A stretch of 64,000 nt of DNA from a bacterium (GCA_014896235.1 JADBKU010000018.1:13986-77985), one strand, 5' to 3'; shown: positions 3,549 to 39,699, counted from the first letter of the stretch. The notes: generated by a model from the sequence alone, not told the origin. Numbers and translations: made by a program.

Positions 3549-3573
3549 TCCCAAACGAGGACGAATCAATCCG

Positions 3574-4479: not shown

Positions 4480-4504
4480 TCCGTTCGGCCTGGACGCTGC
4501 GGCG

Positions 4505-4789
4505 CTATTCGTCGTCCAGACCTTGCGCAGCCGGATCGGAGCTGAAATCGGAACCGCTGCTCGAGCGGAAAAAGCCGTCGTCAGGCGCATTGCGGGCGAT
4601 CCCAACGCAGAATGGATTATCGCTCCGTTCCGCGGCGCTCCAGCTCGGCGCCCGGTTCAGGAGCACGCCCGCGAGCGTCGCCGCCGCGATCGCGATCAGC
4701 ATCGCCGCGCCCACGCCGGGCGCTGACGCCGTGCGCCGCATTCGTTTCAGGCCACGCTTGCCGTGCGAACCGGAATTTGTGGACGCCAT
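4505..4789 (-). CDS. Hypothetical small membrane protein
   Basis: 94-aa ORF with one hydrophobic helix (AAMLIAIAAATLAGVLL). AAGGA-like RBS about 10 nt upstream. No recognisable family. Confidence 0.3.
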   Translation of the reverse strand: MASTNSGSHGKRGLKRMRRTASAPGVGAAMLIAIAAATLAGVLLNRAPSWSAAERSDNPFCVGIARNAPDDGFFRSSSGSDFSSDPAAQGLDDE

Positions 4790-4853
4790 CGCCTGATGTC
4801 CTTCGCAAGCCGAATTTTTTCAATCCCTCTTTGACGCCCCGGCTTCCGGCGCG

Positions 4854-5897: not shown

Positions 5898-5929
5898 CAG
5901 AATCGCCGCCGATCGAAAAGCGCCGCGCC

Positions 5930-8900: not shown

Positions 8901-9880
8901 GCCAGGTGCACATAATTGTGGAGCGGCTCGACGTTGTTAAGCACCACCAGCAGTCGATTGAATCCGACCAGCGGCTGGCCGGATTGATCGCGTACGTCGA
9001 GCTGATCGAGCCGCACCCTGCCCCCGATTCGAATTTGCGGGCCTTGGGTCGCTTGAACAAAATGAATCAGCAAATAGGTCGATAACGCGCCATGCGGCAT
9101 CGTGATCGGCAATTTGCGCGGAACATAGGCAAGATACTTCGAGATTTCGAGCGAACGCAGGTTTAGAACAAGTTCAGACTCCGGCTCGGCGCCGAACGGC
9201 CGCGCCGTGCCCGCCATCGCCAGCTTGCTTCCATCGACGACCATCGCCACATACGGCTTGACGTAAACCTTCACATACGCGGGAAGATTCGCGATAAACG
9301 GCACGTCGATCCGGAGATTCTGAACCGTATGGCGCTGGCCGAGCACCTGGTCGTCAAAATTGATAGCGCCGCCGCTGATTTGAATATTCGAAACCGAGAA
9401 ATGGAACGGCTTGCTCGGTGGCGAGGCCGCCGACGCGGGCTTGGGCGGCGGGATCAAATCCGAAAAATTGAAGGTGTTCGGCGCGGTTCGGACGATATTT
9501 ATCGTCGGATTCGTTATCGCGACCTCCTCAACGACCGGGGCGAGGCGCCACAGCGAATTCCAGGAGGCCTCGACGCCCAAGTGACCGATTTCAACGAAGG
9601 CGCCGCCGCCACTGCGCCTGGCGACCGCGAGCTTGTCGATTTCCAGGCGCAGACTGTACGGATTGAACGCGATTTCGCCCACGCCGACTTGCCGCTTGAG
9701 GCTTTTCGCGACCGATCCGGTCAGTACATGCCGCAGGATTGCGGGAACGCCGAAAAAGCCAAAGCCGGTATAAATCACCAGCGCGGCGACGATTCCGATC
9801 GTCCATCGGCGAACGCGCCGCGATTCAGGCAATCGTTTCGCTTTTTCGCTCGCGCGCCGGAAGATTTCTCGTAATGCCAC
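5930..9880 (-). CDS. AsmA-family/DUF748-type giant envelope protein (outer-membrane biogenesis, TamB/AsmA-like)
   Basis: 1316 aa. N-terminal TM anchor (WTIGIVAALVIYTGFGFFGVPAIL), long beta-rich body, several Pro/Ala-rich low-complexity linkers, C-terminal conserved block. The architecture is typical of the AsmA/DUF748 family. Confidence 0.55.
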   Translation of the reverse strand: MALREIFRRASEKAKRLPESRRVRRWTIGIVAALVIYTGFGFFGVPAILRHVLTGSVAKSLKRQVGVGEIAFNPYSLRLEIDKLAVARRSGGGAFVEIGHLGVEASWNSLWRLAPVVEEVAITNPTINIVRTAPNTFNFSDLIPPPKPASAASPPSKPFHFSVSNIQISGGAINFDDQVLGQRHTVQNLRIDVPFIANLPAYVKVYVKPYVAMVVDGSKLAMAGTARPFGAEPESELVLNLRSLEISKYLAYVPRKLPITMPHGALSTYLLIHFVQATQGPQIRIGGRVRLDQLDVRDQSGQPLVGFNRLLVVLNNVEPLHNYVHLAAIKLDGLKASLTLNADGTTNFSRLASSSEAPPQSTPPAAGVGFTPAPAAPSGATSSPAPPPGAAMRAPAVAVGASPVTSNPSLVQAAPAAPSGAPAPPAQAGAPAAPGKAALDLQVVSIDVTNGAVNLQDNQMPAPVNTAMQSIAAHVSDFHLGAGAPIPYSFGATLSGGGAIAAKGALDLAGSAATTQLTLSQIDVPALQGFAQSILAGKIAAGKVNASANVKADYAPGKFNLHVEPAQASLDGFEIQLPERGQQPIRWTSIGAQLAMADLQAHQATVDRLSTDGISVEVVRDRRGRLNLESLLKSTQSESHVARRGRPHPRRARAPRRPERRRAARKPAMPTAKAPQWQFQIKTVAFDKTAITLRDETERPELRATIAPLNIDLKDVTSNFAKPFGVAIGATVNRRGTLKITGDAAVKPLKANLRVVTRRLDLTPANAVLAARMNAVVARAMLSSSGAVRVAQERRAMRISYRGDVTLGDVRMLDKLTRDLFARWRALRFERIDFAMGEGKPRIHLGAIAFDDFYARVILNRDGKLNLSDIMANPQAAPTSLTRAHGTVAAPAPSPPPAPAPQAAGAGQQAPAAPPKPLPADIRIGEIVLAGGEANYTDNFIRPNYSADLTDLTGKIGEFGTDSTKPADVSLNGMVNRNAPISISGAVSPLAPMAYLDITAKANGIELPDLSAYSAKYTGYPITQGTLTVDVHYLLDQRNLTAQNHIRIDQLTFGDKVPQPSVYNLPVRLAVAILKDSQGRIDLNIPVSGSLNNPQFSLGSVIWYAFKNLIMKAITSPFKLLASALPGGGSAEGLSYVGFKPGFARLNADDRKKLDEVAAALKQRSALKLNITGVVDPSLDQPGLCEAKVDYLVRKRKAEDSGQENVNLDDLQITTGEYDKYLKQVYKAADIPDKPRDFLGMAKSLPPAEMEKLLVANMKVSAADLPGLGRARAEAVRTYLKTRIDPERLIVSPAKIAASQPGGSEPPTRACALRSE

Positions 9881-10264
9881 TGGATTTTTTCATGACGCTC
9901 CGCCAGGGAGCGCCCTCCTTTCCGGTCCGGCCGCGCGACAATCGTACAGAAAGGCCTATGCGCATTGTCGGCATACCATAGGGAATTGAGCGCAATCCAC
10001 CCGCGCAATGCCGCGGGTTTGCCGATAGCGCAAAATTGATTCGGTCCTCGTAATGCCGCTGGTTGCAGCCGTCAGGAGTCCGTTTGGGAAGGAATTTATT
10101 GAGGATTTGCGACCATTTTCCGCGCTTGATTTTTTTTTCGGCGCGGCGATGAATAATTCGGCCGAGGCCTCGTCGAATAGTATTGGAAGCGGTAGCCAAG
10201 GCCGCTCCCCGGTTGCAACCTCCTCCCTGCAGTCGGGGCCGTCCGCCGCAAACGGACGGTGAAA

Positions 10265-10312
10265 GGCGGGCGTTAAGGAGACTCCCCCCTCCTTCAACGA
10301 CCCGCCTTTTTT
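10265..10312 (+). terminator. Rho-independent terminator-like structure on the plus strand
   Basis: GGCGGG(10265-70)...CCCGCC(10301-06) outer stem enclosing an AAGGAG/CTCCTT inner hairpin, followed by TTTTTT (10307-12). Preceded by a second hairpin, CCGTCCG-ccgcaaa-CGGACGG (10239-59). Confidence 0.5.
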
Positions 10313-10533
10313 CGCTCTATTCACTTAAACGAATGTTTTTTGCATTATGAAATTCAATTAGCCGCGTCGGCGTAAATCAAAAATCGTAAGAGCCGATCGA
10401 TATCTTCGAGCGTTCGCTCGGCGCGCTCCAGCGGCGCCAATCGGCGCCATTTGGCGCACCGGCCGTCCCGTTGATGACCGCGCGGCGTCCGCCCTTGACA
10501 TGCCGATGAGCCGCCGTCATAGCTTGACGCGCG

Positions 10534-11187
10534 ATGAAATCGTGGCGGCGATGCTTGATTATTGTGCCGGTGCTGGCGGGACTGGCCTCAGCGTTACTTC
10601 TCAGTTGCGGCGGAGGCGGAAGCAGCGGCATAACGCCCACGATCATCCCAACTTCGCTCTTTGCGGTCTTCGTCTGTTCGGGAGCGCCGCCCACGCCGAC
10701 ACCCACGCCAACGCCAACCAAGGGCGCAACCAAAACGCCAACGCCCACGCCGACGCCGCAATGTTCGCCGGTTACGTCCGCGTCGATCTGCATACCGAAT
10801 ACGAACAACGCGTTCTGCCAAACCGCGCCAACGCCGCCTACGTCGCTCCAGTTCAACGCGCAAGGCGCCTTTACCACCCATAATCCCAAAGAGCCGTACA
10901 AATACCGCGACGTTACGAACAGCTCGGCATGGAATCCGTTCCCCGAGAGCGGAGATATCACGGCGCTGCTGAGCTACGTAACGAATGGCGTGTTCGTCGC
11001 GCTGCAGCCGGTCGGTTCCGCGGGATGCGCCTGCTTTAACGTGACCGACGCCGGAATTCCCAGCCAAAGCGTGCTGGTTGGAGTTAACCAGGACGTATCG
11101 AACTGCGCGTTCACCTGTCCACAGATTCCCACGCCCACTCCGAAGGCGAGCGCTTCCGCCACGCAAGATTCGCGCTTTGCGCCTTAG
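10534..11187 (+). CDS. Lipoprotein with Pro-Thr-rich linkers and multiple Cys
   Basis: Signal peptide plus lipobox (LLLSC|GGGG). (PT)n tandem repeats at about 10681-10770. A mirror ORF on the minus strand (GVGVGV...) is a repeat artefact. Confidence 0.5.
   Translation: MKSWRRCLIIVPVLAGLASALLLSCGGGGSSGITPTIIPTSLFAVFVCSGAPPTPTPTPTPTKGATKTPTPTPTPQCSPVTSASICIPNTNNAFCQTAPTPPTSLQFNAQGAFTTHNPKEPYKYRDVTNSSAWNPFPESGDITALLSYVTNGVFVALQPVGSAGCACFNVTDAGIPSQSVLVGVNQDVSNCAFTCPQIPTPTPKASASATQDSRFAP
10681..10770 (+). repeat. Tandem CCNACN (Pro-Thr) coding microrepeat
   Basis: acgccgacacccacgccaacgccaacc...acgccaacgcccacgccgacgccg encodes PTPTPTPTPTK..TPTPTPTP. Confidence 0.6.
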
Positions 11188-11329
11188 ATTGAAGAGCGCA
11201 GGCATCGGAATCGCCGCCTTGGCCAGGTTTGTCATGTCCGCCGTCCGGCAAGGCAAAAAAATGGCGCAACCTGCGGATTTATTGTTAAAAACCGTTGGCG
11301 TCGCGATGCTGTTTCGATTTGACTCCACG

Positions 11330-11343
11330 TATCGCCGCCGATA
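11330..11343. promoter_or_regulatory. Inverted repeat TATCG-N4-CGATA, candidate TetR operator
   Basis: TATCGccgcCGATA lies immediately upstream of the tetR coding start. An imperfect longer palindrome CCGATAGTGTCGG overlaps it. Confidence 0.35.
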
Positions 11344-11364
11344 GTGTCGGCCATTGCGGCAACG

Positions 11365-12057
11365 ATGGAACGGCAAGCCAGGCGCGAGCAGGTATTGCAT
11401 CACGCGAAGCACATCTTCGCGCGCAAGGGATACCATCGCACCAACATCGCCGACATCATTTCGCGGGCGCGGATCGCGCGCGGAACCTTTTATCTCTATT
11501 TTCAGAACAAGCGCGACATTTTCGAAGAGTTGCTGTCGCAAACGCTGCGCGAGCTGCGCGAACGAATTCAGCGCCTGCGGGTTGGCCCCGGCCAGCCGAA
11601 TCCCGCCGAGCAATTGCGCGCCAATTTGCGGCGGGTGCTCGCTTTCGTGCTTGACGAACGCGAATTGACGGACATTCTGCTCAATCATTCGACCGGTTTC
11701 GATCGGGAGCTTGACGAGCAAATTGTGGATTTTTATGAGCGCGTCACGGATCAGATCCAGCGCTCGCTCGATCTCGGCATCGAAATGAACCTGGTGCGGA
11801 AATGCGACACGCGGGCGGTCGCCTATTGCATCCTGGGGGGCATCAAGGAAATCGTCGGCCAACTATCGCGCAACCAGCGCGACGACGTCGCCGTCCTGGC
11901 GGAGGAGATTCTTGATTTCGGGCTGCGCGGCGTCGCTCGTCCGGAGCTGCTCCAGACGGTTGTCAAGGAAGCGGCGGCCGGCGGTTGTCAGGCAAGCGCA
12001 GCCGGCGCGGAGACGACGGCGGAGGCGGGCCATTTTTTTCGTCCGAAATTAGACTGA
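11365..12057 (+). CDS. TetR/AcrR-family transcriptional regulator
   Basis: N-terminal HTH (ARKGYHRTNIADIISRARIARGTFYLYFQNKRDIF). An alternative GTG start at 11344 is possible. Confidence 0.8.
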   Translation: MERQARREQVLHHAKHIFARKGYHRTNIADIISRARIARGTFYLYFQNKRDIFEELLSQTLRELRERIQRLRVGPGQPNPAEQLRANLRRVLAFVLDERELTDILLNHSTGFDRELDEQIVDFYERVTDQIQRSLDLGIEMNLVRKCDTRAVAYCILGGIKEIVGQLSRNQRDDVAVLAEEILDFGLRGVARPELLQTVVKEAAAGGCQASAAGAETTAEAGHFFRPKLD

Positions 12058-12058
12058 C

Positions 12059-12883
12059 ATGTCAGTTCTAAAAGGCGACAGCCGAACGCATGGCCGGCGG
12101 CGCGCCGCCGCGACCGCCAACGGCAAAACGCATCCGCGCCGCGCGCTCGCGTTCTACGACGTTGACGGCACCTTAATCGATTTGAATCTGCTCCACTCGG
12201 CGCTTTTCGTTTTCGGCAATATCGGCGAATGGAGCGGCCGAATCGGCTATCTCGCCAGCTTCGCCGCGAGACTGCCGTCGCTTTATCTCGCTGAACGCCG
12301 CGATCGCTATCTGCTCAATATCGCGCTTTTCGAGGCCTTCAAGGGCGTCTCCCGCGATCGCCTGTTTTCGCTGGGCGAGGAATATTGCGATCGCGTGATG
12401 ATCGGCCATCTCTATCCGCGCGCCGCCGAACTTATTGAAGCGAACCGCGCGGCGGGGCTCGAACCGGTACTGGTGACAGGCTCGCCGGATTTTATCGTCG
12501 CGCCGTTCGCCGAGCGGCTGGGCATCAAGTCGTGGGCCGCGAACCGGCTGGTCTTCAGCCGCGGGCGAGCCACCGGACGCCTGCACGCGCCGGTGATGGC
12601 TGGCGACGCCAAAGCGGAATGGTGCGCGGAATATTGCGCGCGCCACGGAGTCGGACTTGCCGATTGCTGGGGCTACGCGGATTCCCATTACGACCTGCCG
12701 TTTCTGGCCGTGATGGGGCATCCGGTTGCGGTCAATCCCGACCGGCGCCTGGCGGCGATCGCGGCCGCGCGCCAATGGCCGTTGCTTCGTTTCGATAAGG
12801 GGGAACCGCGGCGCACGCTGGGCGGAATCGACCGCGCCGCGGTCGGCGAATGGCTTGAGAGGAAACTTAATGGCGCGGCCTGA
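12059..12883 (+). CDS. HAD-IB family hydrolase (phosphoserine phosphatase-like)
   Basis: FYDVDGTL motif I, VLVTGSPD motif II, GDAKAEW Lys region, YADSHYDLPFL and AVNPD C-terminal motifs typical of HAD-IB. 2 nt after the tetR stop. Confidence 0.7.
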   Translation: MSVLKGDSRTHGRRRAAATANGKTHPRRALAFYDVDGTLIDLNLLHSALFVFGNIGEWSGRIGYLASFAARLPSLYLAERRDRYLLNIALFEAFKGVSRDRLFSLGEEYCDRVMIGHLYPRAAELIEANRAAGLEPVLVTGSPDFIVAPFAERLGIKSWAANRLVFSRGRATGRLHAPVMAGDAKAEWCAEYCARHGVGLADCWGYADSHYDLPFLAVMGHPVAVNPDRRLAAIAAARQWPLLRFDKGEPRRTLGGIDRAAVGEWLERKLNGAA

Positions 12884-14510
12884 AGCGAAACTCAAGGAAC
12901 TTAAGCCGGCGGACCTGAAGCGCGAGGTGGGATCGCGGCGCGATCTAGTGGTGACGCTCAGCCGCCGTTCCGAGCCGCGGCTGATCGCCTACGGCGACGA
13001 GTTTCTGTACGAAAAGCTGCCGGCGGGAACGCGCGTCGTCTATCCCCCGCCGCCGCTCGACGCGCTGCCCGATCCGGACACCGCGATCCGCTACGCCCTG
13101 CTCCATCCGCTCAACGCCGATCCGCTGTTCGCGCAGCTCAATCCTAACATGCGCGTCACCATCGCGATCGACGACATCAGCCTGCCGCTGCCGCCGATGC
13201 GCCGTCCCGATATCCGCGAACGGCTGCTCAACCAGGTGCTGCAAACGCTGGCGGATTACGGCGTCGATGACGTTCATCTGATCGTCGCCACCGCGCTCCA
13301 TCGCCGGATGACCGAAGCGGAAATCCGCCGGATGGTGGGCGAGCGCGCTTTCAAGCAGTTCTGGCCGGAACGGCTCTACAACTTCGACGGCGAGGATCGG
13401 GCGAACCTCACGATGCTCGGCAAGACCGATCATGGCGAGGAGGTGTGGCTGTCGCGACGCGCGGCGGAATCGGATTTGCTGATTTATCTGAATATCAACC
13501 TGGTGCCGATGGACGGCGGGCATAAATCGGTCGCCGTCGGACTCGCGCCCTATCAAAGCCTGCGCCACCATCATAATCCCGCCACGCTTCGCGACAGCCA
13601 CTCATATATGGACCCGACGCGCTCGGCGCTGCATAGTTCGGCGAACCGGATGGGCCGGATAGTCAATCGCGAAGTGAATGTATTTTCGATCGAGACCGCC
13701 GTGAATACCCAGATGTACGGCGGGATGCTCGACTTCCTGCAAAAGAATGAAGATCGCTTCAGCGACTGGGATCGGATGCGGCTCAAGGGCTTCCGCTGGA
13801 CGCTCGGCGGAATGTCGAACGAATTGCGCCGCCAGGTGATGCATCAGTACGCGGCGCCATACGGGATGACGGGGGTGTGGGCGGGCGAGACCGAAACCGT
13901 CCATCGGCAGGCGCTGGCGCGGGTGTTCCAGCAGTACGCGGTTCCGGTAAAGGGACAATCCGACGTGCTGATCGTCGGCGTGCCCTATATCTGTCCCTAC
14001 AACGTCAATTCGATCATGAATCCCGTCCTCGTGCAGTGCACCGGGATGGGCTACCTGTTCAACATGTACCGCAACAAGCCGCTGGTGAAACCCGGCGGCA
14101 CGATGATTATCTGCCATCCGCTGCGCGACGAATTTCATCCTGAGCATCATCCGAGCTACATCGAATTTTTCCATCGATGCCTGGCCGAGACGACCGACTC
14201 GATCGAACTGGAAAAGCGGTTCGAAGCCGAGTTCGCGCGCAACCCGACCTATATCCACATGTACCGTTACGGACACGCCTATCACGGCGTGCATCCGTTC
14301 TACATGTGGTACTGGGGCGAGCCGGCGCGCCAGCACGTGGGGCGGGTGATCGCGGCCGGATGCCAGGAGCCGGAGGTCGCCGCCCGGCTGGGATGGGAGT
14401 CCGCGGACACGCTCGACGAGGCGATTGCGATGGCCACGTCCGAGCATGGACGGTCGGCGACAATTACCTATCTGCACTTGCCGCCGCTGGTGATCGCCGA
14501 TGTCGAATAG
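12870..14510 (+). CDS. LarA-family (lactate racemase-like, DUF2088 N-domain) protein
   Basis: 546 aa. Conserved blocks (VTIAIDDISLPLPP, LIVATALHRRMTEAE, MDGGHKSVAVGL, HHHNPATL) resemble nickel-pincer-dependent LarA-family racemase/epimerases. Overlaps neighbours by 14 and 11 nt. Confidence 0.55.
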   Translation: MARPEAKLKELKPADLKREVGSRRDLVVTLSRRSEPRLIAYGDEFLYEKLPAGTRVVYPPPPLDALPDPDTAIRYALLHPLNADPLFAQLNPNMRVTIAIDDISLPLPPMRRPDIRERLLNQVLQTLADYGVDDVHLIVATALHRRMTEAEIRRMVGERAFKQFWPERLYNFDGEDRANLTMLGKTDHGEEVWLSRRAAESDLLIYLNINLVPMDGGHKSVAVGLAPYQSLRHHHNPATLRDSHSYMDPTRSALHSSANRMGRIVNREVNVFSIETAVNTQMYGGMLDFLQKNEDRFSDWDRMRLKGFRWTLGGMSNELRRQVMHQYAAPYGMTGVWAGETETVHRQALARVFQQYAVPVKGQSDVLIVGVPYICPYNVNSIMNPVLVQCTGMGYLFNMYRNKPLVKPGGTMIICHPLRDEFHPEHHPSYIEFFHRCLAETTDSIELEKRFEAEFARNPTYIHMYRYGHAYHGVHPFYMWYWGEPARQHVGRVIAAGCQEPEVAARLGWESADTLDEAIAMATSEHGRSATITYLHLPPLVIADVE

Positions 14511-17500
14511 GAACGGAGCTTCGTCCGGCGCGGGTCCGCGCCGCAACGGCGCATCCGCGCGCGCGGCGAGCGGCGCGATGCCGCCGCTCGCGGAAATTTT
14601 CGCCGGGCGGGAATTGCTGATTACGGGCGCGACCGGTTTTCTCGGCAAAGTGCTGATCGCGATTCTCCTGCGGCATCATCCCGAGCTCGCCCGGCTGCAT
14701 CTGCTGATTCGCGGCGATCGCAAATCGAGCCATAACCGCTTCCGGCGCGAAATTCTCGAATCGCCCGCGCTCGGCCCCCTGCGCGAACATCTGGGCGCCA
14801 GCTTCGACCGCTATATCGAGGAGCGGGTCGCGATCGTGCCGGGCGACATCGCTGAACCGGGCCTGCTCAGCGACGAAGCGCCGGCGTTCGAGCGCGCGCA
14901 TATCGACGCGGTCATCCATTGCGCCGGCCTGGTGAATTTCGACGCGTCGCTGGCCAAGGCGCTCGAAGTCAACGCCATCGGCGTCGAAAACGTGGTCGCC
15001 TTCTGCTGCGCGCGCGGCGCCGCCCTGCTCCACGTTTCGACCTGTTACGCGGCGGGCGCCGCCGACGGCCATCGCTACGAGGACGACATCCCGATCGACT
15101 GGCGGCCGAACGGCCGCAAGGGCTTCGAGCTCGCGCGCGAAATGCGCGACGCGCGCGCGGAAATCGCGCGCGTCGAGGCGGAAGCTTCCGATCAAGCGCG
15201 AATGGCGCAGTTCCGGATGGCGGTCGAGGCGGAATCCGCCGACGCGGACGACGAGCGCGGCCACGGCGAAAGCGGCGAGCGCGCGATCGACGCGCGGCGC
15301 AAACAATGGATCGAAGAACGCTTGAAGGAAGTGGGCAAGCGGCGCGCGCGGATGTGGGGCTGGCCGAACACCTACAGCTACACCAAGAGCCTCGGCGAAC
15401 AGATTGCGCTCGCGGCGCGCGACCGCATCGCGGTGACGGTGGCGCGGCCGTCGGTGATCGAAAGCGCGCTCGCCGATCCGATTCCCGGATGGAACCAGGG
15501 CGTCAACACCAGCGCGCCCCTGACCTATCTGTCGGGACGCGGCTATCGCTTCTATCCAGCGCGGGGCGACCTGGTGCTCGACGTGATTCCGGTCGATCTC
15601 GCCGCGCACGCGATGGTTCCGATTCTCGGCGCGCTGTTGAGCGGCCGGCACAAGCCGATTTACCAGCTCTGCACGTCGGACGTGAATCCGCTGCCGATGC
15701 GCCGCCTGGTGGAATTGACCGCCCTCGGCAATCGGCGGGAGCATCGCCGGCAGGGCGGGCCGATGGGCAAGCTCGCGCGCCATCTGGAAGCCGTCATCGT
15801 TTCGCATCAGACCTACGAACTGGTCAGCCAGCGGCTGCCGGCGTTGCTGAAGAGCGCGGCGGCGGCGGCGGAATCGGTGATGGGCGATCGTCCGGCGGCG
15901 CGCAAAATCGCCGAGCGGGTCGAACGGCTGGTCGCGGACACGGAACTGGCGCGCTCGCTGGTCGAAGTCTATCTGCCGTATATCCAGGACCTGGTTTATA
16001 CCTTCCACGGGCGCAATATCCGCGAGCTGTACCGGGAACTTAAGCCGGCCGACGCGCGCGCCCATCCGTTCCATCCCGAGCGCATCGATTGGGCCGACTA
16101 CTGGATCAACGTCCATCTGCCGGGATTGCGCCGGCATATTTTCCCGCAGCTCGAATTGCATACGCGGGCGCGGCCGCGCGGCGGTTTCCGCTTCCGCACG
16201 CTGGTCGAGATGCTCGACCGGGCGGCCGAACGCTACGGCGCGCGGCCCGCGCTCGAGGCGCGCCTGCCGTCGGGCCAGCGCGCGGGCATGACCTATCGCG
16301 AACTCCGCGATCGCGCGTATCGGGCGGGCCTGATGCTGGCGTCGCGCGGGGTCGAACCGGGCGATCGCGTTCTGCTGATTGCGGAGAATTCGCCCGAGTG
16401 GGTGATCGCATACTTCGCGATAATTTACGCCGGCGCGATCGCCGTACCGCTGGACCATCTAATTGCGCCGGAAGAACTGGGGCCGATCGCGCGCATCGCC
16501 GAACCGGGCGCCGCGCTGGTTTCCGCCGGATGCGCGAAGCGGCTGGGCGCGGCGATCAGCGCGGCGGCGCCGGGAATCGCCGAGCTAGGACTGGACGAGC
16601 TGAATCGGCCGTTCATTCTCAGCGCGAAAGCGAAGACTCCGCCCGCGCTCGAGCGCAAATCGATCGCGTCGATCGTTTTCACCTCCGGCACCACCGGCGC
16701 GCCCAAGGGCGTGACGCTGACCCACGGCAACTTCACCGCCGAAATTGCGATGCTGGCGCGGGTGTTCACGCTCGGCGCCGACGACGTCGTGCTCTCGCTG
16801 CTGCCGCTGCACCATACCTTCGAGTTCACCTGCGGGATGCTGTTGCCGCTGGCGAGCGGCGCGCGGATCGTTTACCCGCAGGGCGTGGACGCCGCGAGCC
16901 TGTCTCGCACGCTGGCCGACGTGCGGCCGACCGCGCTGGTGGGAGTGCCGGCGCTGTGGGAGGCCGTGCACCGCCGCATCATGGACGAAGTCGAAGCGCG
17001 CGGGCCTTTCGCGCACGCCGCGTTCGAGCGGATGCGCGATCTGAATCGCCGGCTCGACGAAGATTACAACTTCAATCTCGGCACGCTGCTGTTCCGCCCG
17101 GCGCATGCCGCATTAGGCGGACGGCTCAAGCTCGCGGTGAGCGGCGGCGCGGCGCTGCCGCAACGGGTCGCGCGCTTTTTCAACGAAATCGGCATCCGGC
17201 TGCTTGAAGGCTACGGCCTGACCGAATCGGCGCCGGTGCTGAGCGTCGCGCGGCCCGACGAACCGCTGGTTCCAGGGTCGGTCGGCAAGCCGCTGCATAA
17301 CGTCGAGGTCAAATTGGCCATGGCCGAGGGCGGCGTCGGCGAGATTATCGCGCGTGGGCCGAACGTGATGGCGGGCTATTACCGCAATCCCGCGGCGACC
17401 GCCGAAGTGCTGCGCGACGGCTGGCTGCATACGGGCGATCTCGGCCGTTTCGACGAAGACGGACGGCTCTATATCGTCGGCCGGGCGAAGGACGTAATCG

Positions 17501-18909
17501 TCGATTCGGGCGGCAACAATATCTACATCGACGAGCTTGAAGAGGCGTACGGCCACTCGCCGTTCCTGAAAGAGCTGGCCGTGGTCGGATTGCGCGCCGG
17601 CCAGGGCGAGCAGGTCGCGGCGCTGGCCGTTCCGGCCTACGCGCGCGGCGAAAGCCGGCGCGCCGTCGAGGACAAGCTGCGCGCGCATTTCGAAAAAGTC
17701 GGCGCGGCGCTCAGTCCGCACAAGCGCATCCGCATCCTGCGCTTCACCGACGCCGAGCTGCCGCGCACGCGCACGCGCAAGGTGCGGCGCGCCGAGGTCG
17801 CGGCGATGCTGCGCCGGATGGTGGACAGCGACGAGCGCGAGCGCGGCGCCGTCAGCGCGGAGGTCGAACCGTGGCTGGCGCAGGCGCTGGCGCAGGTCGC
17901 GAGCGGCGGCGCGGAAATCACGCCGGCGACGCGGCTGATCGAAGACCTCGGATTGGATTCGCTGGCGCTGGCCGAACTGGCGGAGCATATCGCCGTCAAA
18001 TCGGGCCGCGAGCTCAGCGCGGAGGAGCTTTCGAACGTCGCGACCGTCGCGGAGTTGCAGCGAATCGCGGGCGAAGCCGGCAATCGCCCGAAGCTGCCGT
18101 CATATGCGCGCTTCGCGAAACCGTACACAATCGAACTGCCGGCGCCGTTGCGGCGGCTGGGCGAGGCGGCGCTCCGGCGATCATTCGACGCGGCGGTCGA
18201 CCGCTGGCTGAAGCCGCTCGTGATGGGCGCCGGGAATATTCCGGCGAACCGCAACGTGCTGGTCGTGGCGAACCATTCGAGCCATCTCGATTTCGCGCTC
18301 GTCGGCCACGCGTTGGGAGCGATGGGCCGCAACCTGGTGGTGCTCGCGGCCAAGGATTATTTCTTCAACACGCCGGCGCGGCGAACGCTCGCGGCGAACT
18401 TCACGCGGCTGATCCCGTTCGACCGCGAACGCGCACAGCTCGAATCGCTCGACGAGGCGCTGGCGGAACTGGCGGCAGGCCGCAGCGTGCTGATGTTTCC
18501 CGAAGGCACGCGCTCGCCCGACGGCCTGATCCACGAGTTCAAGAGCGGCGCGGGCTACCTTGCGTTGCATAGCGGATGCGACGTGCTGCCGATCCGAATC
18601 GACGGCACGCATGAGGTGCTCGGCAAGGGCCAGCTTCTGCCGCGGCGCCATCCGGTGGAAATTCGCATCGGGCGGCCGATCGGAGCGGAGGAACTGCGCG
18701 GCCTCGCCCGCGACGGCGAAAGCGCGGGCGCGTATCGCAAGCTCGCCGAGCGGATGCGCGACGCAGTCGTCGGCCTCGGCGCGCGCCCGGCGAAGCGCAT
18801 CAAACCTTTGGCGGCGATCGCCGGGCCTTCCAGCGACGCGGCGGAAATAGCCGCCGCGCCCGGCGAACGCGCCCGCGGCCGTCGTCCGGCGCGCCACGCG
18901 AAAGGTTGA
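14500..18909 (+). CDS. Four-domain lipid megaenzyme: fatty acyl-CoA/ACP reductase (NAD-binding, male-sterility type), AMP-dependent acyl ligase, acyl carrier protein, 1-acylglycerol-3-phosphate acyltransferase (ElbD-like)
   Basis: aa about 35-500: LLITGATGFLGKVL plus YSYTK (YxxxK), the thioester-reductase/FAR fold. aa about 560-1080: AMP-binding (FTSGTTGAPKG, GYGLTES, YRTGDLGRFDEDGRLYIVGRAKD). aa about 1110-1190: PP-binding (DLGLDSLALAEL). aa about 1230-1400: LPLAT (NHSSHLD giving HX4D, FPEGTRS). 1469 aa. Confidence 0.8.
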   Translation: MSNRNGASSGAGPRRNGASARAASGAMPPLAEIFAGRELLITGATGFLGKVLIAILLRHHPELARLHLLIRGDRKSSHNRFRREILESPALGPLREHLGASFDRYIEERVAIVPGDIAEPGLLSDEAPAFERAHIDAVIHCAGLVNFDASLAKALEVNAIGVENVVAFCCARGAALLHVSTCYAAGAADGHRYEDDIPIDWRPNGRKGFELAREMRDARAEIARVEAEASDQARMAQFRMAVEAESADADDERGHGESGERAIDARRKQWIEERLKEVGKRRARMWGWPNTYSYTKSLGEQIALAARDRIAVTVARPSVIESALADPIPGWNQGVNTSAPLTYLSGRGYRFYPARGDLVLDVIPVDLAAHAMVPILGALLSGRHKPIYQLCTSDVNPLPMRRLVELTALGNRREHRRQGGPMGKLARHLEAVIVSHQTYELVSQRLPALLKSAAAAAESVMGDRPAARKIAERVERLVADTELARSLVEVYLPYIQDLVYTFHGRNIRELYRELKPADARAHPFHPERIDWADYWINVHLPGLRRHIFPQLELHTRARPRGGFRFRTLVEMLDRAAERYGARPALEARLPSGQRAGMTYRELRDRAYRAGLMLASRGVEPGDRVLLIAENSPEWVIAYFAIIYAGAIAVPLDHLIAPEELGPIARIAEPGAALVSAGCAKRLGAAISAAAPGIAELGLDELNRPFILSAKAKTPPALERKSIASIVFTSGTTGAPKGVTLTHGNFTAEIAMLARVFTLGADDVVLSLLPLHHTFEFTCGMLLPLASGARIVYPQGVDAASLSRTLADVRPTALVGVPALWEAVHRRIMDEVEARGPFAHAAFERMRDLNRRLDEDYNFNLGTLLFRPAHAALGGRLKLAVSGGAALPQRVARFFNEIGIRLLEGYGLTESAPVLSVARPDEPLVPGSVGKPLHNVEVKLAMAEGGVGEIIARGPNVMAGYYRNPAATAEVLRDGWLHTGDLGRFDEDGRLYIVGRAKDVIVDSGGNNIYIDELEEAYGHSPFLKELAVVGLRAGQGEQVAALAVPAYARGESRRAVEDKLRAHFEKVGAALSPHKRIRILRFTDAELPRTRTRKVRRAEVAAMLRRMVDSDERERGAVSAEVEPWLAQALAQVASGGAEITPATRLIEDLGLDSLALAELAEHIAVKSGRELSAEELSNVATVAELQRIAGEAGNRPKLPSYARFAKPYTIELPAPLRRLGEAALRRSFDAAVDRWLKPLVMGAGNIPANRNVLVVANHSSHLDFALVGHALGAMGRNLVVLAAKDYFFNTPARRTLAANFTRLIPFDRERAQLESLDEALAELAAGRSVLMFPEGTRSPDGLIHEFKSGAGYLALHSGCDVLPIRIDGTHEVLGKGQLLPRRHPVEIRIGRPIGAEELRGLARDGESAGAYRKLAERMRDAVVGLGARPAKRIKPLAAIAGPSSDAAEIAAAPGERARGRRPARHAKG

Positions 18910-18926
18910 GCGGCGCACGGCGCATC

Positions 18927-19781
18927 ATGAACATGTCCCGCGCAATCGCGCTCGCAGTGGCCGCCGTGCTGGCCGCATCGATCGCGCCGCCAGCGCATGC
19001 GTGGGATTCGCGAACGCATCGCCTGATCACGCGGCTGGCGGTCGACGCGCTGCCCGCGGGATCGCCGCGCGCGACGCTTGCGGCCAACGAAGCGCGACTG
19101 CAGGAGGCGTCGGTCGCGCCGGACGAAGTCTTGCGTCCGCTCTATGGCAAGTCCGAAGCGATCAAGCACTATCTGGATCTCGAATACTACGGCGCCGATC
19201 CCTTCGCGGCGCTCAATCCCGATATTCATGTGATGGAACGGGAGTACGGATGGCGCACGCTGGAGCAATCGGGCACGCTGCCGTGGACGATCGAGGAAGA
19301 GTCGGCCGATCTCGCGAACGCATGGCGCGGCGGCGATTGCGCGAATGCGATCCAGACCGCCGGCTACCTGGCGCATTACGTCGGCGACGCGACCCAGCCG
19401 CTCCATTCGACCACCCACTTCGACGGCTACGCGCAAGATCGCGGCGTCCATCGGCGCTTTGAGAGCGCGGTCGATTACAACGTCTGGCGCATCGAGCAGA
19501 TGGCTCGCCCGGAAGTTCAGCTCGCGCCGATCGTGTCGCCGTGGGACGCGGCTATCGCGGAACTCCGCGAGAGCCATCCGCTGGTACAGGCGGTAATCAA
19601 CGCCGACCGTACGGCGCGCGCGGAAACCGGACTTCGGCGCGGGGCCTATTTCGATCGCGTGTTGATGGCCGAGGAGGCGCCGATGGTCGCGCGCCAGATA
19701 GCGATCGCCGCTTCAACGCTCGGTTCGATCTGGCGATATGAATGGACGCAGGCCGGCCAACCGTCTGCATGCGCGGAATAG
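18927..19781 (+). CDS. Secreted S1/P1-nuclease / zinc phospholipase C superfamily hydrolase
   Basis: Signal peptide (MNMSRAIALAVAAVLAASIAPPAHA). Mature N-terminus WDSRTH carries the Zn-ligand W1/H6. HYVGDATQPLH closely matches the P1 nuclease HFIGDMTQPLH Zn-binding signature. The upstream gene's stop overlaps the alternative TTG start at 18906. Confidence 0.6.
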   Translation: MNMSRAIALAVAAVLAASIAPPAHAWDSRTHRLITRLAVDALPAGSPRATLAANEARLQEASVAPDEVLRPLYGKSEAIKHYLDLEYYGADPFAALNPDIHVMEREYGWRTLEQSGTLPWTIEEESADLANAWRGGDCANAIQTAGYLAHYVGDATQPLHSTTHFDGYAQDRGVHRRFESAVDYNVWRIEQMARPEVQLAPIVSPWDAAIAELRESHPLVQAVINADRTARAETGLRRGAYFDRVLMAEEAPMVARQIAIAASTLGSIWRYEWTQAGQPSACAE

Positions 19782-19888
19782 TCGCGCGCTTCTGGACCGG
19801 CCGGGCGACGGTTAGAATATCAGTGGACGGATAGCGCGGTTGAGAACGTAAATCGCGCCGCCGCATCGGATTGGAAATTTTGGCGCTG

Positions 19889-20422
19889 ATGGACTGGTGG
19901 ACCCGGAAAGACGACGATCGGCCGCGGCCGACCCGCGGCGATATTCGCCCGTCGGTGAGCGAAATCACCGGCTATCTGCTGGTCGGCGAATACCCGCGCG
20001 TCGCCGATATCGAATGGCTCAAGCGCGAGCATCGCATAACCGCGATCCACAATCTTCAGGACGACGAGGATTTGCGCATCAACGCGCTCGATATCGCCGC
20101 GCTCGAAGCGGCCGCCGCCCGGCACGGAATCGCGTATACGCGCACGCCCATCCATGACGGCAGTTCCGACGATGTCGCGCGCAGGCTGGAAGCGGCGCTG
20201 GCGGACTTGCACGCGCTGGTCGCCGGCGAGCGGCGCGTATATCTGCACTGCAACGCCGGCTTGAATCGCGCGCCGACGCTCGCGATCGCATACTTGCGAG
20301 CCTATCGCGGAATGTCGCTCGAAGAGGCGCTGGCGCTGGTCAAAGCGCGGCGCGCATGCGGGCCGTTCATGACCGTGCTCGAAAATCATTTCGGTCCGCG
20401 CCACCTCAAACCCTCAGCGTAG
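19889..20422 (+). CDS. Dual-specificity (Cys-based) protein/lipid phosphatase, CX5R type
   Basis: VYLHCNAGLNRAPT matches the HC(X)5R(S/T) P-loop of DSP/PTP-fold phosphatases. 177 aa. Confidence 0.7.
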   Translation: MDWWTRKDDDRPRPTRGDIRPSVSEITGYLLVGEYPRVADIEWLKREHRITAIHNLQDDEDLRINALDIAALEAAAARHGIAYTRTPIHDGSSDDVARRLEAALADLHALVAGERRVYLHCNAGLNRAPTLAIAYLRAYRGMSLEEALALVKARRACGPFMTVLENHFGPRHLKPSA

Positions 20423-20440
20423 CCGGCCGCGGCGCCGCAG

Positions 20441-21166
20441 ATGGCGAGTCAACGGATTCTCCGCGGATGCGCATGGGGCGTTCATCTACTGACCGCGTCG
20501 GGCGCGGCGGCGGGGTTGATAGCGATCGACCGCACGACGCGCGCGGACTGGCGCGGCGCGTTTATCGCGATGGCGGTCGCGGTCGCGATCGATTCTTTCG
20601 ACGGGCCGCTGGCCCGCGCGCTTCGCGTACGCGAACGCATCCCCGTCTTCGACGGCGCGACGCTCGACAATATCGTGGACTATCTCAATTACGTCGCGGT
20701 TCCCGCCTTCCTGATGCTGCGGGCGAAGCTGCTGCCGGCGGGAAACGTCGGAACGATACTCGCCGCGTTCGTGATGATCGCGAGCGCATACGGCTTCAGC
20801 CGGACCGACGCGAAGACCGAGGACAACTACTTCCGCGGCTTCCCGTCTTACTGGAACCTGGTCGCGCTCTATATTTTCTGCCTCGGATTTTCACGCACGG
20901 CCAACGGCGTCATCGTCGGCGCGCTGGCGCTGATGGTGTTCGTTCCAATCAAATATATTTATCCGAATCGCACCGAGCTGATGCGTCCGCTGACCCTCAC
21001 GCTCGCCGCGATATGGGGCGTCGCCACCGTCGCGATGCTGCCGATGCTGCCGAAACATAACGATCTTCTGCTTTACACCTCGCTCGCCTTCGTCGTTTAC
21101 TATTTCGCGATGTCATTCGCCCTTCACGTTCATCCGGCGCGCGTCGCCGCTCGCCGTCCGCGTTAG
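20441..21166 (+). CDS. pcs: CDP-alcohol phosphatidyltransferase, phosphatidylcholine synthase (Pcs)-type
   Basis: DSFDGPLARALRVRERIPVFDGATLDNIVD fits DG(X)2AR(X)12G(X)3D(X)3D, the extended-spacing variant reported for Pcs (the classical CDP-OH motif has X8). 241 aa with multiple TM helices, the same length as rhizobial Pcs. Confidence 0.55.
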   Translation: MASQRILRGCAWGVHLLTASGAAAGLIAIDRTTRADWRGAFIAMAVAVAIDSFDGPLARALRVRERIPVFDGATLDNIVDYLNYVAVPAFLMLRAKLLPAGNVGTILAAFVMIASAYGFSRTDAKTEDNYFRGFPSYWNLVALYIFCLGFSRTANGVIVGALALMVFVPIKYIYPNRTELMRPLTLTLAAIWGVATVAMLPMLPKHNDLLLYTSLAFVVYYFAMSFALHVHPARVAARRPR

Positions 21167-21172
21167 GCCGCG

Positions 21173-22129
21173 ATGTCCGCCACGATCGCCGCCGCGGCAT
21201 GGCTTGAAATCGTCGAAGGACCCGCGCCGATCCTGCTGATTGCGCCGCACGGCGGACGCGCCGGCGCCGCCGCGCGCGCCGCGCTCCATCCGAAAGTGAA
21301 CGACCTCGAGACCGCCGCGATCGCGCGCGAGCTGGCGGACAGGCTCGGCGCCTGCGCGCTGATCAATTCGGCGATGGACCGCAACGAACTGGATTGCAAC
21401 CGGCTCGGGCAATTGGCGGCGCGTGCGCCATGGATGCTCGAATTGATCGCCAGCCGGGTCGAACACATGGCGCGCCGGCGCGGGCGCGCGATCGTGATGC
21501 TGATTCACGGCTGGAACGTGATCGAGCCGCGAGTGGATATCGGCCTCGGGCTGCGCGATCACGGCGCGCACCTCCGTCCGCCCGCCGGAGCCCACGTCAG
21601 CGCGAGCGACGATTTCATCAGCGGTCCTGTATCCGCGATAACCGAGCGGCTTGACCGCGCGGGCATCGCGGCGACCTTCGGGATGCGCTATCCGGGCGGC
21701 GCGCGTCAGAACCTGTTGCAGGCGTTCACGCCGCGCCATCGCGCAAGCGACATTCCGGCCGTTCGGCGGCTCGCCGCGCTCGCGGCCGACGGCGCGGTCG
21801 ACGCGATTCAACTGGAAATGTCGGTCGCGGTGCGGATGCCCGGACCGTTGCGCGCGAAGGGAATCGCGGCGATCGCCGAATCGTTTCGCTTTGCTCATGG
21901 CGATGACCGCGGCTCCCGCCACTGGATCGAAAACATCGAACGGAACTTACGCCGCGCGCGTCGTAATCCGCGAAGCGCCGCCGCGACCCGCGCAGGCCGT
22001 CGCGCCGTCCGCCGTCGCGCCGACCCGGTATGGCGTGGAATTCTTCGACGCCGCCGCAAACGTTGGCGGAATCGCCAGCTTCGATCTCGGCGCGGGCGGC
22101 GCCGGCGGACGGATCATGATTCTGTTTGA
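21173..22129 (+). CDS. N-formylglutamate amidohydrolase (FGase/HutG-like) fold protein; 3' end unresolved
   Basis: LLIAPHGGR matches the FGase family N-terminal motif. After about aa 245 (FRFAHGDDRG) the frame turns Arg-rich with no stop until 22129, while an overlapping frame carries plausible protein sequence from 21897. This points to a frameshift, a fusion, or an unusual overlap. Confidence 0.4.
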   Translation: MSATIAAAAWLEIVEGPAPILLIAPHGGRAGAAARAALHPKVNDLETAAIARELADRLGACALINSAMDRNELDCNRLGQLAARAPWMLELIASRVEHMARRRGRAIVMLIHGWNVIEPRVDIGLGLRDHGAHLRPPAGAHVSASDDFISGPVSAITERLDRAGIAATFGMRYPGGARQNLLQAFTPRHRASDIPAVRRLAALAADGAVDAIQLEMSVAVRMPGPLRAKGIAAIAESFRFAHGDDRGSRHWIENIERNLRRARRNPRSAAATRAGRRAVRRRADPVWRGILRRRRKRWRNRQLRSRRGRRRRTDHDSV

Positions 22130-22916
22130 TCGATGCCGCGCTGCGCTCTTTACCGCCGAAGGACGCCCGCATCATGACGGCGAAACGTTTTCGCTTGGAC
22201 CGCTGCGATTTGCCTGCGACGGCCGCGCCGGCAGCGTGACGTTCGCCGGTCCTGCGATAGTCGTGAACGACGGCGGCGCCTATCTAAGCGTGGAGCACGC
22301 GCTGGCCGGCGGCGCGCTCGATCCCGCGATGCGACTCCGCGCCGCGCTCGCGTTCGAAGAAGACGCGGGGACGCCGGACCTCGTCGCGCCGCCCCCGCGC
22401 TTTGGACGGCTGCAAGGCGCGATTGAAATCGCTGGACGCCGGTTGAATCTGGACGCCGTCGCGCGCGTCGGCGTGTCTGTAACCGGTCTCGGCGCGGGGC
22501 GCTTCGAAATCCGGCGCACCATCTGGGCGCGCTTTGCTTCCGGGAGTCGAATCGCCGCGCTCGAAGTATGCGAAACCGCCGAGCGGAATCAGTCAATTCA
22601 TCGTGATGCGCGAATCCTGACCGAAAACGGATGGCGAACGGCGGAAGTCGGCGCGATCGAACTGACGACGCGCGAGCCCGCCGCGCCGCCCGACCGCATC
22701 GCGGCTTCGATCATCGCGCCGCGCGGCGCGGAGGCGGAGCTGAACGGCGCGGTCAGGAGCTTCATGTCGCTCTCGCGCCCCGGCGCGGACGGCGTACGCA
22801 TCCATACAACGCTCGGCTTCGCCGAGTTCAGTCTGGGCGGAGAACGCGGAGCCGGGATGTTCGAATATTCGCGGGTCGTCGGCCGGCCCGACGCCGCCAT
22901 GGACGAAATTCGATAA
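21897..22916 (+). CDS. Hypothetical protein (Gly/Ala-rich, no recognised domain)
   Basis: Protein-like composition from MAMTAAPATG onward (340 aa). The part of the 21651 ORF upstream of that is Arg-rich artefact. Last gene of the plus-strand operon. Confidence 0.4.
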   Translation: MAMTAAPATGSKTSNGTYAARVVIREAPPRPAQAVAPSAVAPTRYGVEFFDAAANVGGIASFDLGAGGAGGRIMILFDRCRAALFTAEGRPHHDGETFSLGPLRFACDGRAGSVTFAGPAIVVNDGGAYLSVEHALAGGALDPAMRLRAALAFEEDAGTPDLVAPPPRFGRLQGAIEIAGRRLNLDAVARVGVSVTGLGAGRFEIRRTIWARFASGSRIAALEVCETAERNQSIHRDARILTENGWRTAEVGAIELTTREPAAPPDRIAASIIAPRGAEAELNGAVRSFMSLSRPGADGVRIHTTLGFAEFSLGGERGAGMFEYSRVVGRPDAAMDEIR

Positions 22917-22923
22917 GTCGATT

Positions 22924-23865
22924 TCAGCCGGCTTCTTCCGGCGCCGATGAGAGTTGATGCGGTTCGGCCGCGGCGGCCTTGAGCCGCAACGCCACGAGCC
23001 GCGCGAGTTCGTGAAAGTTCTTCGCCAGCGGCGATTCCGGATACGCGCGGATAAAAATCACGCCGCGGTCGCAGCTTTCCGCGAGCCGCGAATCGAACGG
23101 CAGGCGCGCCAGCGTCGCAACCCCGTCCGCGGCCGCCACGGCGGCGAGATCGCCATGCGGCAGCAACGGCCGCACCGAGTGGCATCCCTCGCAGCTGAAG
23201 CCGACCATGTTCTCGACCAGTCCGAGCACGGGGACGGAGCAAAGCCGCGCGATTTCGATCGCGCCGCGCGTCGCGCGCACCGCGAAATCCGACGGCTGCG
23301 TCACTATGATCGCGCCTGCCAACGGCGCGATCCGCGCCAGACGGAAAAGCTGTTCAAGCCCCGGAGCGAGATCGATCAACAGCACGTCCAGCGCGCCAAA
23401 ATTGGTCAGCCCGAGCAATCGGCGCAGCGCGTCATCGTAATCGAGTTCGGCGAGCGCGGACCCGTTGCGGCTCACGGCTTCATGCGCGGCATCGCCGTCA
23501 AGAAAGCTGATAGGGGGCGGCTCGCCGCCGGGCAATAGGCCGCTGGCCGCGATTCGCAGTCCCAGCGGGCCCGCGATCGGCTCGATCGCCTCGCCGGCGA
23601 AGACTCGCCGCGGCGCCTGCAAGCCCAGCATCGCCAGCACGTTCGGCGAATTCAGGTCGGCGTCGAGGATTCCCACCTTTTGGCCGGCCAGCGCCAGCGC
23701 CGCCGCCAGATTGACTGTGACGGCGCTTTTGCCCACGCCGCCCTTCGCGCTCGCGATCGCGACCGCCGCGCGCACGCCGCTCAGGCCAGCACCCGGCGCG
23801 GCCGTTCCGCGCGCGCCGCGGGAATCGCATTCAGCGTCAGCCCGGCGTTCCCTGAAGATCCTCAT
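22924..23865 (-). CDS. apbC: Mrp/NBP35-family Fe-S cluster carrier ATPase
   Basis: Deviant Walker A (SAKGGVGKS), CEGC (CxxC) cluster-binding motif, 313 aa. Confidence 0.8.
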   Translation of the reverse strand: MRIFRERRADAECDSRGARGTAAPGAGLSGVRAAVAIASAKGGVGKSAVTVNLAAALALAGQKVGILDADLNSPNVLAMLGLQAPRRVFAGEAIEPIAGPLGLRIAASGLLPGGEPPPISFLDGDAAHEAVSRNGSALAELDYDDALRRLLGLTNFGALDVLLIDLAPGLEQLFRLARIAPLAGAIIVTQPSDFAVRATRGAIEIARLCSVPVLGLVENMVGFSCEGCHSVRPLLPHGDLAAVAAADGVATLARLPFDSRLAESCDRGVIFIRAYPESPLAKNFHELARLVALRLKAAAAEPHQLSSAPEEAG

Positions 23866-38443: not shown

Positions 38444-38472
38444 CGCCTCAACGCCTCATGCGGCCACAGGGT

Positions 38473-39582: not shown

Positions 39583-39699
39583 GTCAAATGGACCTGCCCG
39601 GCATCGAGTTCATTCGCTAGCTTAGCCGCGCGCGCCGGGGTATTCCATCGAGCAGGCAGAACGCGCCCCGGCTCAGGCGCGCGCAGGGGAGTGAAGGCG

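Follow-up and report, generated by a model that had tools for sequence, protein, structure and literature searches.

Disruption of elbD in Myxococcus xanthus strongly reduces the levels of alkyl and vinyl ether lipids, which return on complementation, a requirement established for this species only (Lorenzen et al. 2014, summarised in PMC9131029). The ElbD protein of this species (MXAN_1528, UniProt Q1DC43) is encoded within the elbA-E genes (MIBiG BGC0000871) and has been reviewed as consisting of an N-terminal FAR1-like domain followed by acyl-coenzyme A (CoA) synthetase (ACS), acyl carrier protein (ACP) and AGPAT-like domains (PMC9131029). Here we describe a gene at positions 14500 to 18909 of a stretch of bacterial DNA of 64,000 nucleotides (GCA_014896235.1 JADBKU010000018.1:13986-77985), the whole of which is referred to as the window. 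The product of this gene is like ElbD in its modules and their order and, as in Myxococcus sp. Y35, the genes for ElbB (a HAD protein) and ElbC (a Lar_N protein) are located upstream. The window differs from the elbA-E operon in having a host assigned to Binatota rather than Myxococcota, no adjacent elbA or elbE, a TetR regulator upstream and, downstream, genes for a phospholipase C (PLC)-like protein, a dual-specificity phosphatase (DSP), a Pcs-like transferase and a protein of ∼600 residues. The gene is very probably a canonical elbD orthologue situated in an elbBCD cluster.

Parts of this architecture are shared with other fusion proteins. FARAT, the FAR-GNPAT fusion of the MXAN_1675 type belonging to the eukaryote-like plasmanyl pathway, carries a FAR1-like domain at its N terminus together with a glycerolipid acyltransferase, as does the window protein, and is proposed to provide the fatty alcohol and the acylated backbone for ether lipids with AGPS as its partner (PMC9131029). 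FARAT has neither ligase nor ACP and acts alongside a separate AGPS, whereas the window protein has ∼650 residues, comprising a ligase and an ACP, inserted between the fatty-acyl reductase (FAR) and the acyltransferase (AT), and its AT is nearest to PlsC/AGPAT; the scanned open reading frames (ORFs) of the window contained no AGPS-type domain. Aas of Escherichia coli (2-acyl-GPE acyltransferase/acyl-ACP synthetase) resembles ElbD in the fusion of a PlsC-family AT to a fatty-acid-activating ligase. In Aas the AT is N-terminal, free ACP is used and there is no reductase, the enzyme recycling lysophospholipids and making no alkyl chains. The carboxylic acid reductases (CARs) that resemble nonribosomal peptide synthetases (NRPSs) combine adenylating, carrier and short-chain dehydrogenase/reductase-type thioester reductase domains, but are ordered adenylation, carrier and reductase (A-T-R) and have no acyltransferase, while the window protein is ordered R-A-T-AT and has a FAR-type reductase with a Sterile region.

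Four modules on one polypeptide

The ORF is intact, starts with ATG and encodes 1469 residues, a length equal to that of its relatives. The GC contents at codon positions 1, 2 and 3 (0.73/0.49/0.83) match those of real genes of the window. The predicted features are as follows.

14500..18909, plus strand: ElbD orthologue (Pfam modules, motifs and full-length alignment to ElbD of cultured Cystobacterineae)
14620..16143, plus strand: ElbD module 1, FAR-type NAD(P)H reductase, residues 41-548 (Pfam NAD_binding_4 and Sterile; alignment to PDB 7eoz)
16213..17781, plus strand: ElbD module 2, fatty-acid adenylating ligase, residues 572-1094 (Pfam AMP-binding and AMP-binding_C)
17872..18057, plus strand: ElbD module 3, acyl carrier domain, residues 1125-1186 (Pfam PP-binding; GLDSL with Ser1154)
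18220..18600, plus strand: ElbD module 4, PlsC/AGPAT-type acyltransferase, residues 1241-1367 (Pfam Acyltransferase; H1259x4D; FPEGTR at 1333)

In Pfam searches the reductase was matched by NAD_binding_4 at residues 41-372 (E = 3e-47), the ligase by AMP-binding at 572-961 (E = 4.5e-82) and AMP-binding_C at 1012-1094, the carrier domain by PP-binding at 1125-1186 (E = 4e-6; 27.4 bits against a cut-off of 20.8) and the acyltransferase by Acyltransferase at 1241-1367 (E = 3e-25). These E-values are far beyond chance. The Sterile region at 475-548 had an E-value of 3.5e-7, its 30.7 bits lying under the gathering score of 35.4 bits. Residues 30-548 covered a solved fatty acyl-CoA reductase (PDB 7eoz) over nearly its full length (E = 2e-47), indicating that the reductase is of the FAR type and not a terminal reductase (R) domain of an NRPS. 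Long-chain fatty-acid-CoA ligases, FadD5 and FadD13 among them, gave the top matches of the ligase in NCBIfam and the PDB. The solved structure nearest to the acyltransferase was PlsC (5kym; E = 4e-18); the NCBIfam AGP_acyltrn domain also matched, below its cut-off, and models of Aas-type acyl-ACP-phospholipid acyltransferases matched more weakly, again below cut-off.

Cofactor and catalytic motifs were intact in all four modules: GATGFLG at 43 (Rossmann fold) and YSYTK at 292 (Y292xxxK296) in the reductase; TSGTTGAPKG at 728 (phosphate-binding loop), GYGLTE at 904, TGDL at 978 and GRAKD at 994 in the ligase; GLDSL at 1151 in the carrier domain; and HSSHLD (HX4D) at 1259 and FPEGTR at 1333 in the acyltransferase. 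An earlier note on this DNA had named these four activities on a single 1469-residue polypeptide and had called the protein ElbD-like. The first statement was borne out by Pfam, every quoted motif being located, and the second by a full-length collinear homology, by the presence of the same modules and by linkage to elbB and elbC. The domain boundaries also held in Pfam, and the other identities considered in that note, an NRPS-type R domain and an NRPS-like carboxylic acid reductase, were both contradicted.

Domain order in the ElbD family

The ElbDs used for comparison were from a congener and a confamilial of M. xanthus (Myxococcus sp. Y35 and Melittangium) and not from M. xanthus DK1622 itself. 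Named ElbD orthologues of cultured Cystobacterineae were obtained by a profile search, and a genome scan seeded with ElbD of Melittangium boletus gave 80 Cystobacterineae loci, including five from Myxococcus species and none from M. xanthus DK1622. The locus in Myxococcus sp. Y35, for which a complete genome is available, encodes an NAD-epimerase, a HAD protein, a Lar_N protein, ElbD and a second NAD-epimerase, which is the published elbA-B-C-D-E layout (PMC9131029). The Y35 ElbD had Pfam matches to NAD_binding_4 (residues 26-361), Sterile (485-548), AMP-binding (572-962), PP-binding (1132-1195) and Acyltransferase (1255-1383), which is almost the same placement as in the window protein. Y35 ElbD and the window protein aligned as one collinear high-scoring segment pair (HSP) with 40% identity over 1457 residues (899 bits), and the alignment to M. 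boletus ElbD was likewise a single HSP (38% identity over 1456 residues).

Domain order across the family was determined by mapping the four window modules with phmmer onto 270 relatives, consisting of the 120 closest homologues and 150 representatives at 50% identity obtained with residues 1-1200 of the window protein as the query. All 120 closest homologues had the order FAR-ligase-ACP-AT. Among the representatives, 97 were partial or shorter but collinear (ligase only, FAR only, ligase-AT and others), and the same relative order was observed in every one with two or more modules, the short ACP often falling below threshold. A ligase preceding the reductase was found in none of the 270 relatives. 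These comparisons indicate that the window protein is very probably an ordinary counterpart of ElbD, a reductase-first arrangement being the normal order of the family and not a rearrangement.

The Binatia elb gene cluster

The homologues closest to the window protein were 66 to 95% identical, and their source names included 'Candidatus Binataceae bacterium' and 'Candidatus Binatus sp.', placing the host as an uncultured relative of Candidatus Binataceae (Candidatus Binatota, Binatia, Binatales, Binataceae). The top match, at 95%, was on a 142-kb contig of GCA_027403335.1 (locus L001) with an identical gene order. The genes flanking elbD in the window are listed below.

11344..12057, plus strand: TetR-family regulator, which heads the cluster in its Binatia form (Pfam TetR_N and TetR_C_24)
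12059..12883, plus strand: ElbB-like HAD-IB hydrolase, 274 residues (Pfam HAD, 1.9e-30; NCBIfam TIGR01490, above cut-off)
12870..14510, plus strand: ElbC-like LarA-family protein, 546 residues (Pfam Lar_N, 2.8e-36; NCBIfam NF052592 LarAH14/15/16)
18906..19781, plus strand: Zn-dependent phospholipase-C-like/S1-P1-nuclease-like protein, directly 3′ of ElbD (Pfam Zn_dep_PLPC, 3e-10)
19871..20422, plus strand: protein of dual-specificity-phosphatase fold, 183 residues (Pfam DSPc, 7.7e-17)
20441..21166, plus strand: CDP-alcohol phosphatidyltransferase, phosphatidylcholine-synthase-like, 241 residues (Pfam CDP-OH_P_transf, 5e-6)
21173..22916, plus strand: conserved gene of ∼580-620 residues, the last of the co-directional block (tblastn with the intact L001 and L083 proteins)

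The TetR stop codon lies 1 nt before the start of the HAD gene, and a TetR gene occupies the same position in L001 and in two further Binatia loci (L083 and L084). The ElbB-like protein was 38% identical to ElbB of Myxococcus sp. Y35. The elbC start codon (ATG at 12870) was assigned from the sequence and from orthologues of 546 residues, the mechanical ORF beginning at 12726; so defined, the coding region shares 14 nt with the end of the HAD gene and 11 nt with the beginning of elbD. Such overlapping stop and start codons in elbB, elbC and elbD suggest co-translation. The ElbC-like protein was 53% identical to Myxococcus ElbC over its full length and was, hence, better conserved than ElbD.

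The block from the TetR gene to the last gene was also present in Binatia loci whose ElbD was only 68 to 71% identical to that of the window, one of them missing the PLC-like gene. Its downstream part extends over 18906-22916 in the window, 14437-18423 in L001, 13371-17361 in L083 and 13523-16687 in L084. The PLC-like gene was found in L001 and L083 and is the gene missing from L084, while the DSP-fold gene was retained at the same position in all three. The L083 orthologue of the Pcs-like protein matched NCBIfam phosphatidylcholine synthase models with an E-value of 1e-54, its score of 185 bits falling short of the equivalog cut-off (440). For the ∼600-residue product of the last gene there was no NCBIfam or PDB match, only weak sub-threshold matches to DUF7064 that were repeated in three orthologues. 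Relative to the L001 DNA, which is 89% identical, the window has a 2-bp deletion at ∼21907 that splits this gene into two frames (21173-22129 and 21651-22916), the result of either pseudogene formation or an assembly indel. No promoters were predicted in a scan of 9800-23200, and predicted terminators were less numerous there than in shuffled sequence.

Alternative explanations

The earlier note had regarded the protein as possibly rearranged, a domain-shuffled ElbD; in such a variant the reductase would have moved from an internal to the N-terminal position and created a new channelling order. The sole basis for this explanation was an assumed ElbD order of ligase-ACP-reductase-AGPAT, which is incorrect: the order in the literature and in Myxococcus sp. 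Y35 is reductase-ligase-ACP-AT, and no other order was found in the 270 relatives. The Y35 protein, encoded in a full elbA-E operon, already has its reductase ahead of its ligase, and hence we give domain shuffling next to no credence. An NRPS-like carboxylic acid reductase or other natural-product enzyme, in which a terminal R domain would release an aldehyde for a secondary metabolite, is also very improbable. The N-terminal region did match the NCBIfam thioester-reductase domain and carboxylic acid reductase models weakly, below cut-off, and elb clusters are classed as NRPS-like by tools for biosynthetic gene cluster mining, according to the literature. However, R domains of CARs and NRPSs follow an A-T unit whereas the window reductase is N-terminal, its residues 30-548 match a full FAR structure inclusive of the Sterile-type part, the ligase is nearest to fatty-acid CoA ligases and the C terminus is a lipid acyltransferase of the PlsC type. 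The neighbouring genes are, moreover, lipid genes, with no condensation, ketosynthase or tailoring genes among those scanned.

A different alternative accepts the protein as a true ElbD homologue and gives it a non-ether role in Binatia, either in fatty-alcohol or wax-type lipids or in an Aas-like recycling onto lysophospholipids with the FAR feeding another sink. We rate this as unlikely, with a higher chance than the preceding explanations. It would fit with the weak matches, far below cut-off, of the AT and ligase regions to Aas-type models, with the lack of elbE in the Binatia clusters and with the existence of some bacteria having elbD homologues without detectable ether lipids. Against it, the elbB-elbC-elbD core is kept with overlapping codons, and the scanned ORFs of the window did not include a wax-synthase (WS/DGAT) gene. 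Retention of this core, together with the 53% identity of ElbC across phyla, argues for a pathway chemistry like that of myxobacteria.

Ether lipid synthesis and the absence of elbE

A part of the window protein in alkyl-ether lipid synthesis is plausible. That the window ElbD makes ether lipids in its host is, in our estimation, reasonably likely; this is less assured than the orthology because elbD homologues occur in isolates without detected ether lipids and because elbE is unlinked. Several points weigh against an ether lipid role. elbE was not adjacent to elbD in any of the four Binatia loci (window, L001, L083 and L084), and inactivation of this gene lowers ether lipids in M. xanthus (PMC9131029). 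Isolates of Pontiella have elbD homologues, and ether lipids were not detected in them (PMC11868695). Binatia are uncultured, and the individual steps ascribed to ElbD are inferred.

Among the Cystobacterineae loci with enough flank, elbE followed elbD in 71 of 75, and it did so also in four other lineages: Anaeromyxobacter sp. Fw109-5, a Kofleriaceae metagenome-assembled genome (MAG) and two further clades, which are the nearest relatives of the Binatia proteins. Clustering is not universal, and cases in which elbE lies apart from elbB and elbC have been noted (PMC9131029); its absence therefore concerns the operon and not the ElbD protein. Pfam scans of the likely genes of the window, which did not extend to short ORFs or those with low GC at the third codon position, detected none of elbE, AGPS-type, CarF-type or larBCE genes. 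An NAD-epimerase at 3331-4479 was considered as a displaced ElbE and rejected, being only 29% identical to both ElbE and ElbA and located 10 kb upstream of elbD; the upstream flanks available for L083 and L084 showed no counterpart. One lineage can thus have an elb cluster without elbE, a point that specialists could use.

Proposed pathway

In the ether lipid role that we favour, the ligase would adenylate a long-chain fatty acid and load it as a thioester onto the in-cis ACP, with CoA as a possible alternative acceptor since the ligase resembles acyl-CoA synthetases more than acyl-AMP ligases. The FAR module would then reduce the thioester with NAD(P)H to a fatty aldehyde or alcohol, the future alkyl chain, and the PlsC-like module would use a second acyl-thioester to acylate a lyso-glycerophosphate, probably at the sn-2 position of a 1-alkyl-glycerol phosphate. 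The ether-forming step would take place outside ElbD and would probably need partners, for which ElbC and ElbB are candidates. The head group may be completed by the products of the downstream phosphatase and Pcs-like genes, and the expected product would be a 1-O-alkyl glycerolipid.

A bolder proposal is that Binatia make alkyl-ether glycerolipids by an elbE-independent elbB-elbC-elbD route wired to head-group genes, with ElbC supplying the ether-forming chemistry. We regard this as unlikely; if it were true, ether-linked phosphocholine-type lipids might result, given the Pcs-like transferase, the DSP phosphatase and the PLC-like protein.

ElbC as a LarA homologue

elbC has been described as a gene of unknown function (PMC9131029). 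The ElbC-like protein of the window falls within NCBIfam NF052592 (847 bits against a cut-off of 740), and ElbC is, by homology, a member of the LarA superfamily. Instances of ElbC were located at 12870-14510 (plus strand) in the window, at 4373-5983 in locus L028 and at 8364-9977 in locus L002.

In LarA, Lys184 tethers the nickel-pincer nucleotide (NPN), His200 is a nickel ligand, Arg75 binds the NPN phosphate and His108 and His174 are the catalytic residues. ElbC orthologues of Binatia and Cystobacterineae, 47 in all, were mapped onto Lactiplantibacillus plantarum LarA by pairwise HMMER alignments, not by structure. The equivalents of His108, Lys184 and His200 were invariant in all 47 orthologues, whereas the second catalytic residue, His174, was replaced by Asn in every one and Arg75 was replaced by Leu or Val. 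With a single catalytic histidine predicted, ElbC could not act as a two-base racemase.

Among solved structures the best matches to ElbC were LarA_Bw and LarA_Sp (PDB 9q2u/9q3j/9q3k; E ∼ 1e-29), with the N- and C-terminal regions aligned. These proteins, from Blautia and Streptococcus, respectively, also have Asn in place of His174 and keep the NPN-tethering Lys and the nickel-ligand His (PMC12611868). Identity to them is low and, unlike them, ElbC has no equivalent of Arg75 and is found in the context of elb lipid genes rather than glycolytic genes. Covalent binding of NPN was shown for the single-histidine homologue of Streptococcus, which had no lactate racemase activity (Gatreddi et al. 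2025, PMC12611868). A carbohydrate role has been suggested for such homologues, whose substrates are given as unknown, and lipids are never mentioned (PMC12611868). No paper in the searchable literature mentions both the nickel-pincer cofactor and Myxococcus. ElbC thus gives a lipid-pathway context to a LarA subfamily with uncharacterised substrates.

As a speculation to which we assign a small chance, ElbC is a candidate for hidden-redox chemistry on the glycerol backbone. The C2 hydroxyl of glycerol would be transiently oxidised, a fatty alcohol would take the place of the acyl group in an exchange like that of AGPS, and the hydride would be returned; if so, ElbC would replace the trio of GNPAT, AGPS and reductase. 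Replacement of Arg75 was considered as a sign of a lipid substrate and this argument was dropped, as Arg75 binds the NPN phosphate and not the substrate. Identification of ElbC with the Phytophthora gluconate epimerase termed 'LarAH15' was not adopted either, as the enzyme numbering of that paper and the group numbering of NCBIfam may differ.

Distribution of ElbD

Beyond Binatia, the nearest ElbD clusters were 40 to 47% identical to the window protein and included one from a Myxococcota MAG; ElbDs from Planctomycetota (MAGs) and Cystobacterineae were 38 to 42% identical. A high-GC group of ElbD relatives (group 9) was considered as myxobacterial and this was rejected, its named close relatives being Planctomycetota MAGs. 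ElbD homologues have already been reported in Acidobacteriota, Poribacteria, Latescibacterota, Planctomycetota, Chloroflexota and other phyla. No paper connecting Binatota with ElbD or ether lipids was found in the searchable literature, and the present locus adds Binatota to the phyla with a complete FAR-containing ElbD plus ElbB and ElbC. The sources of the matching sequences suggest that Binatia are common in environmental metagenomes, and a Binatota ElbD bears on which uncultured bacteria make environmental alkyl-ether lipids. As first stated, the ElbD finding has little significance, for the domain order is corrected and the protein is filed as a standard ElbD; its value is taxonomic and contextual.

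A four-domain ElbD of 1594 residues at 9001-13785 in a Planctomycetota MAG (GCA_023954375.1; locus L085) stands alone. Neither elbB, elbC nor elbE was found within 9 kb of it, and an epimerase-family gene is located on the opposite strand at a distance of ∼8 kb. Clustering of ElbD with its partners is, therefore, not invariable.

Other features of the window

A divergent gene at 5930-9880 (minus strand), ∼1.5 kb upstream of the TetR-elb block, encodes a DUF748/AsmA/YhdP-like protein of 1316 residues. This family has been implicated in phospholipid transport to the outer membrane. L001 has this gene as well; the flanks obtained for L083 and L084 do not contain it. Between it and the TetR gene lies a conserved ORF of 217 residues (10534-11187, plus strand) with no Pfam match and a counterpart at 6034-6687 in L001. 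Further upstream, the region 135-5897 contains together genes for an unusually long CofD-like protein (649 residues), a MobA-like nucleotidyltransferase, an NAD-dependent epimerase and a luciferase-like monooxygenase, which may be an F420-related set.

The gene for a pyridoxal phosphate (PLP) enzyme of Cys/Met metabolism at ∼39650-40861 (plus strand) is split. Its N-terminal part is in the frame of a spurious ORF (38308-41073), and the ORF at 40073-40861 covers only positions 144-380 of the Pfam profile. The occurrence of two apparent frameshifts (∼21907 and ∼40090) within 64 kb suggests assembly indel errors.

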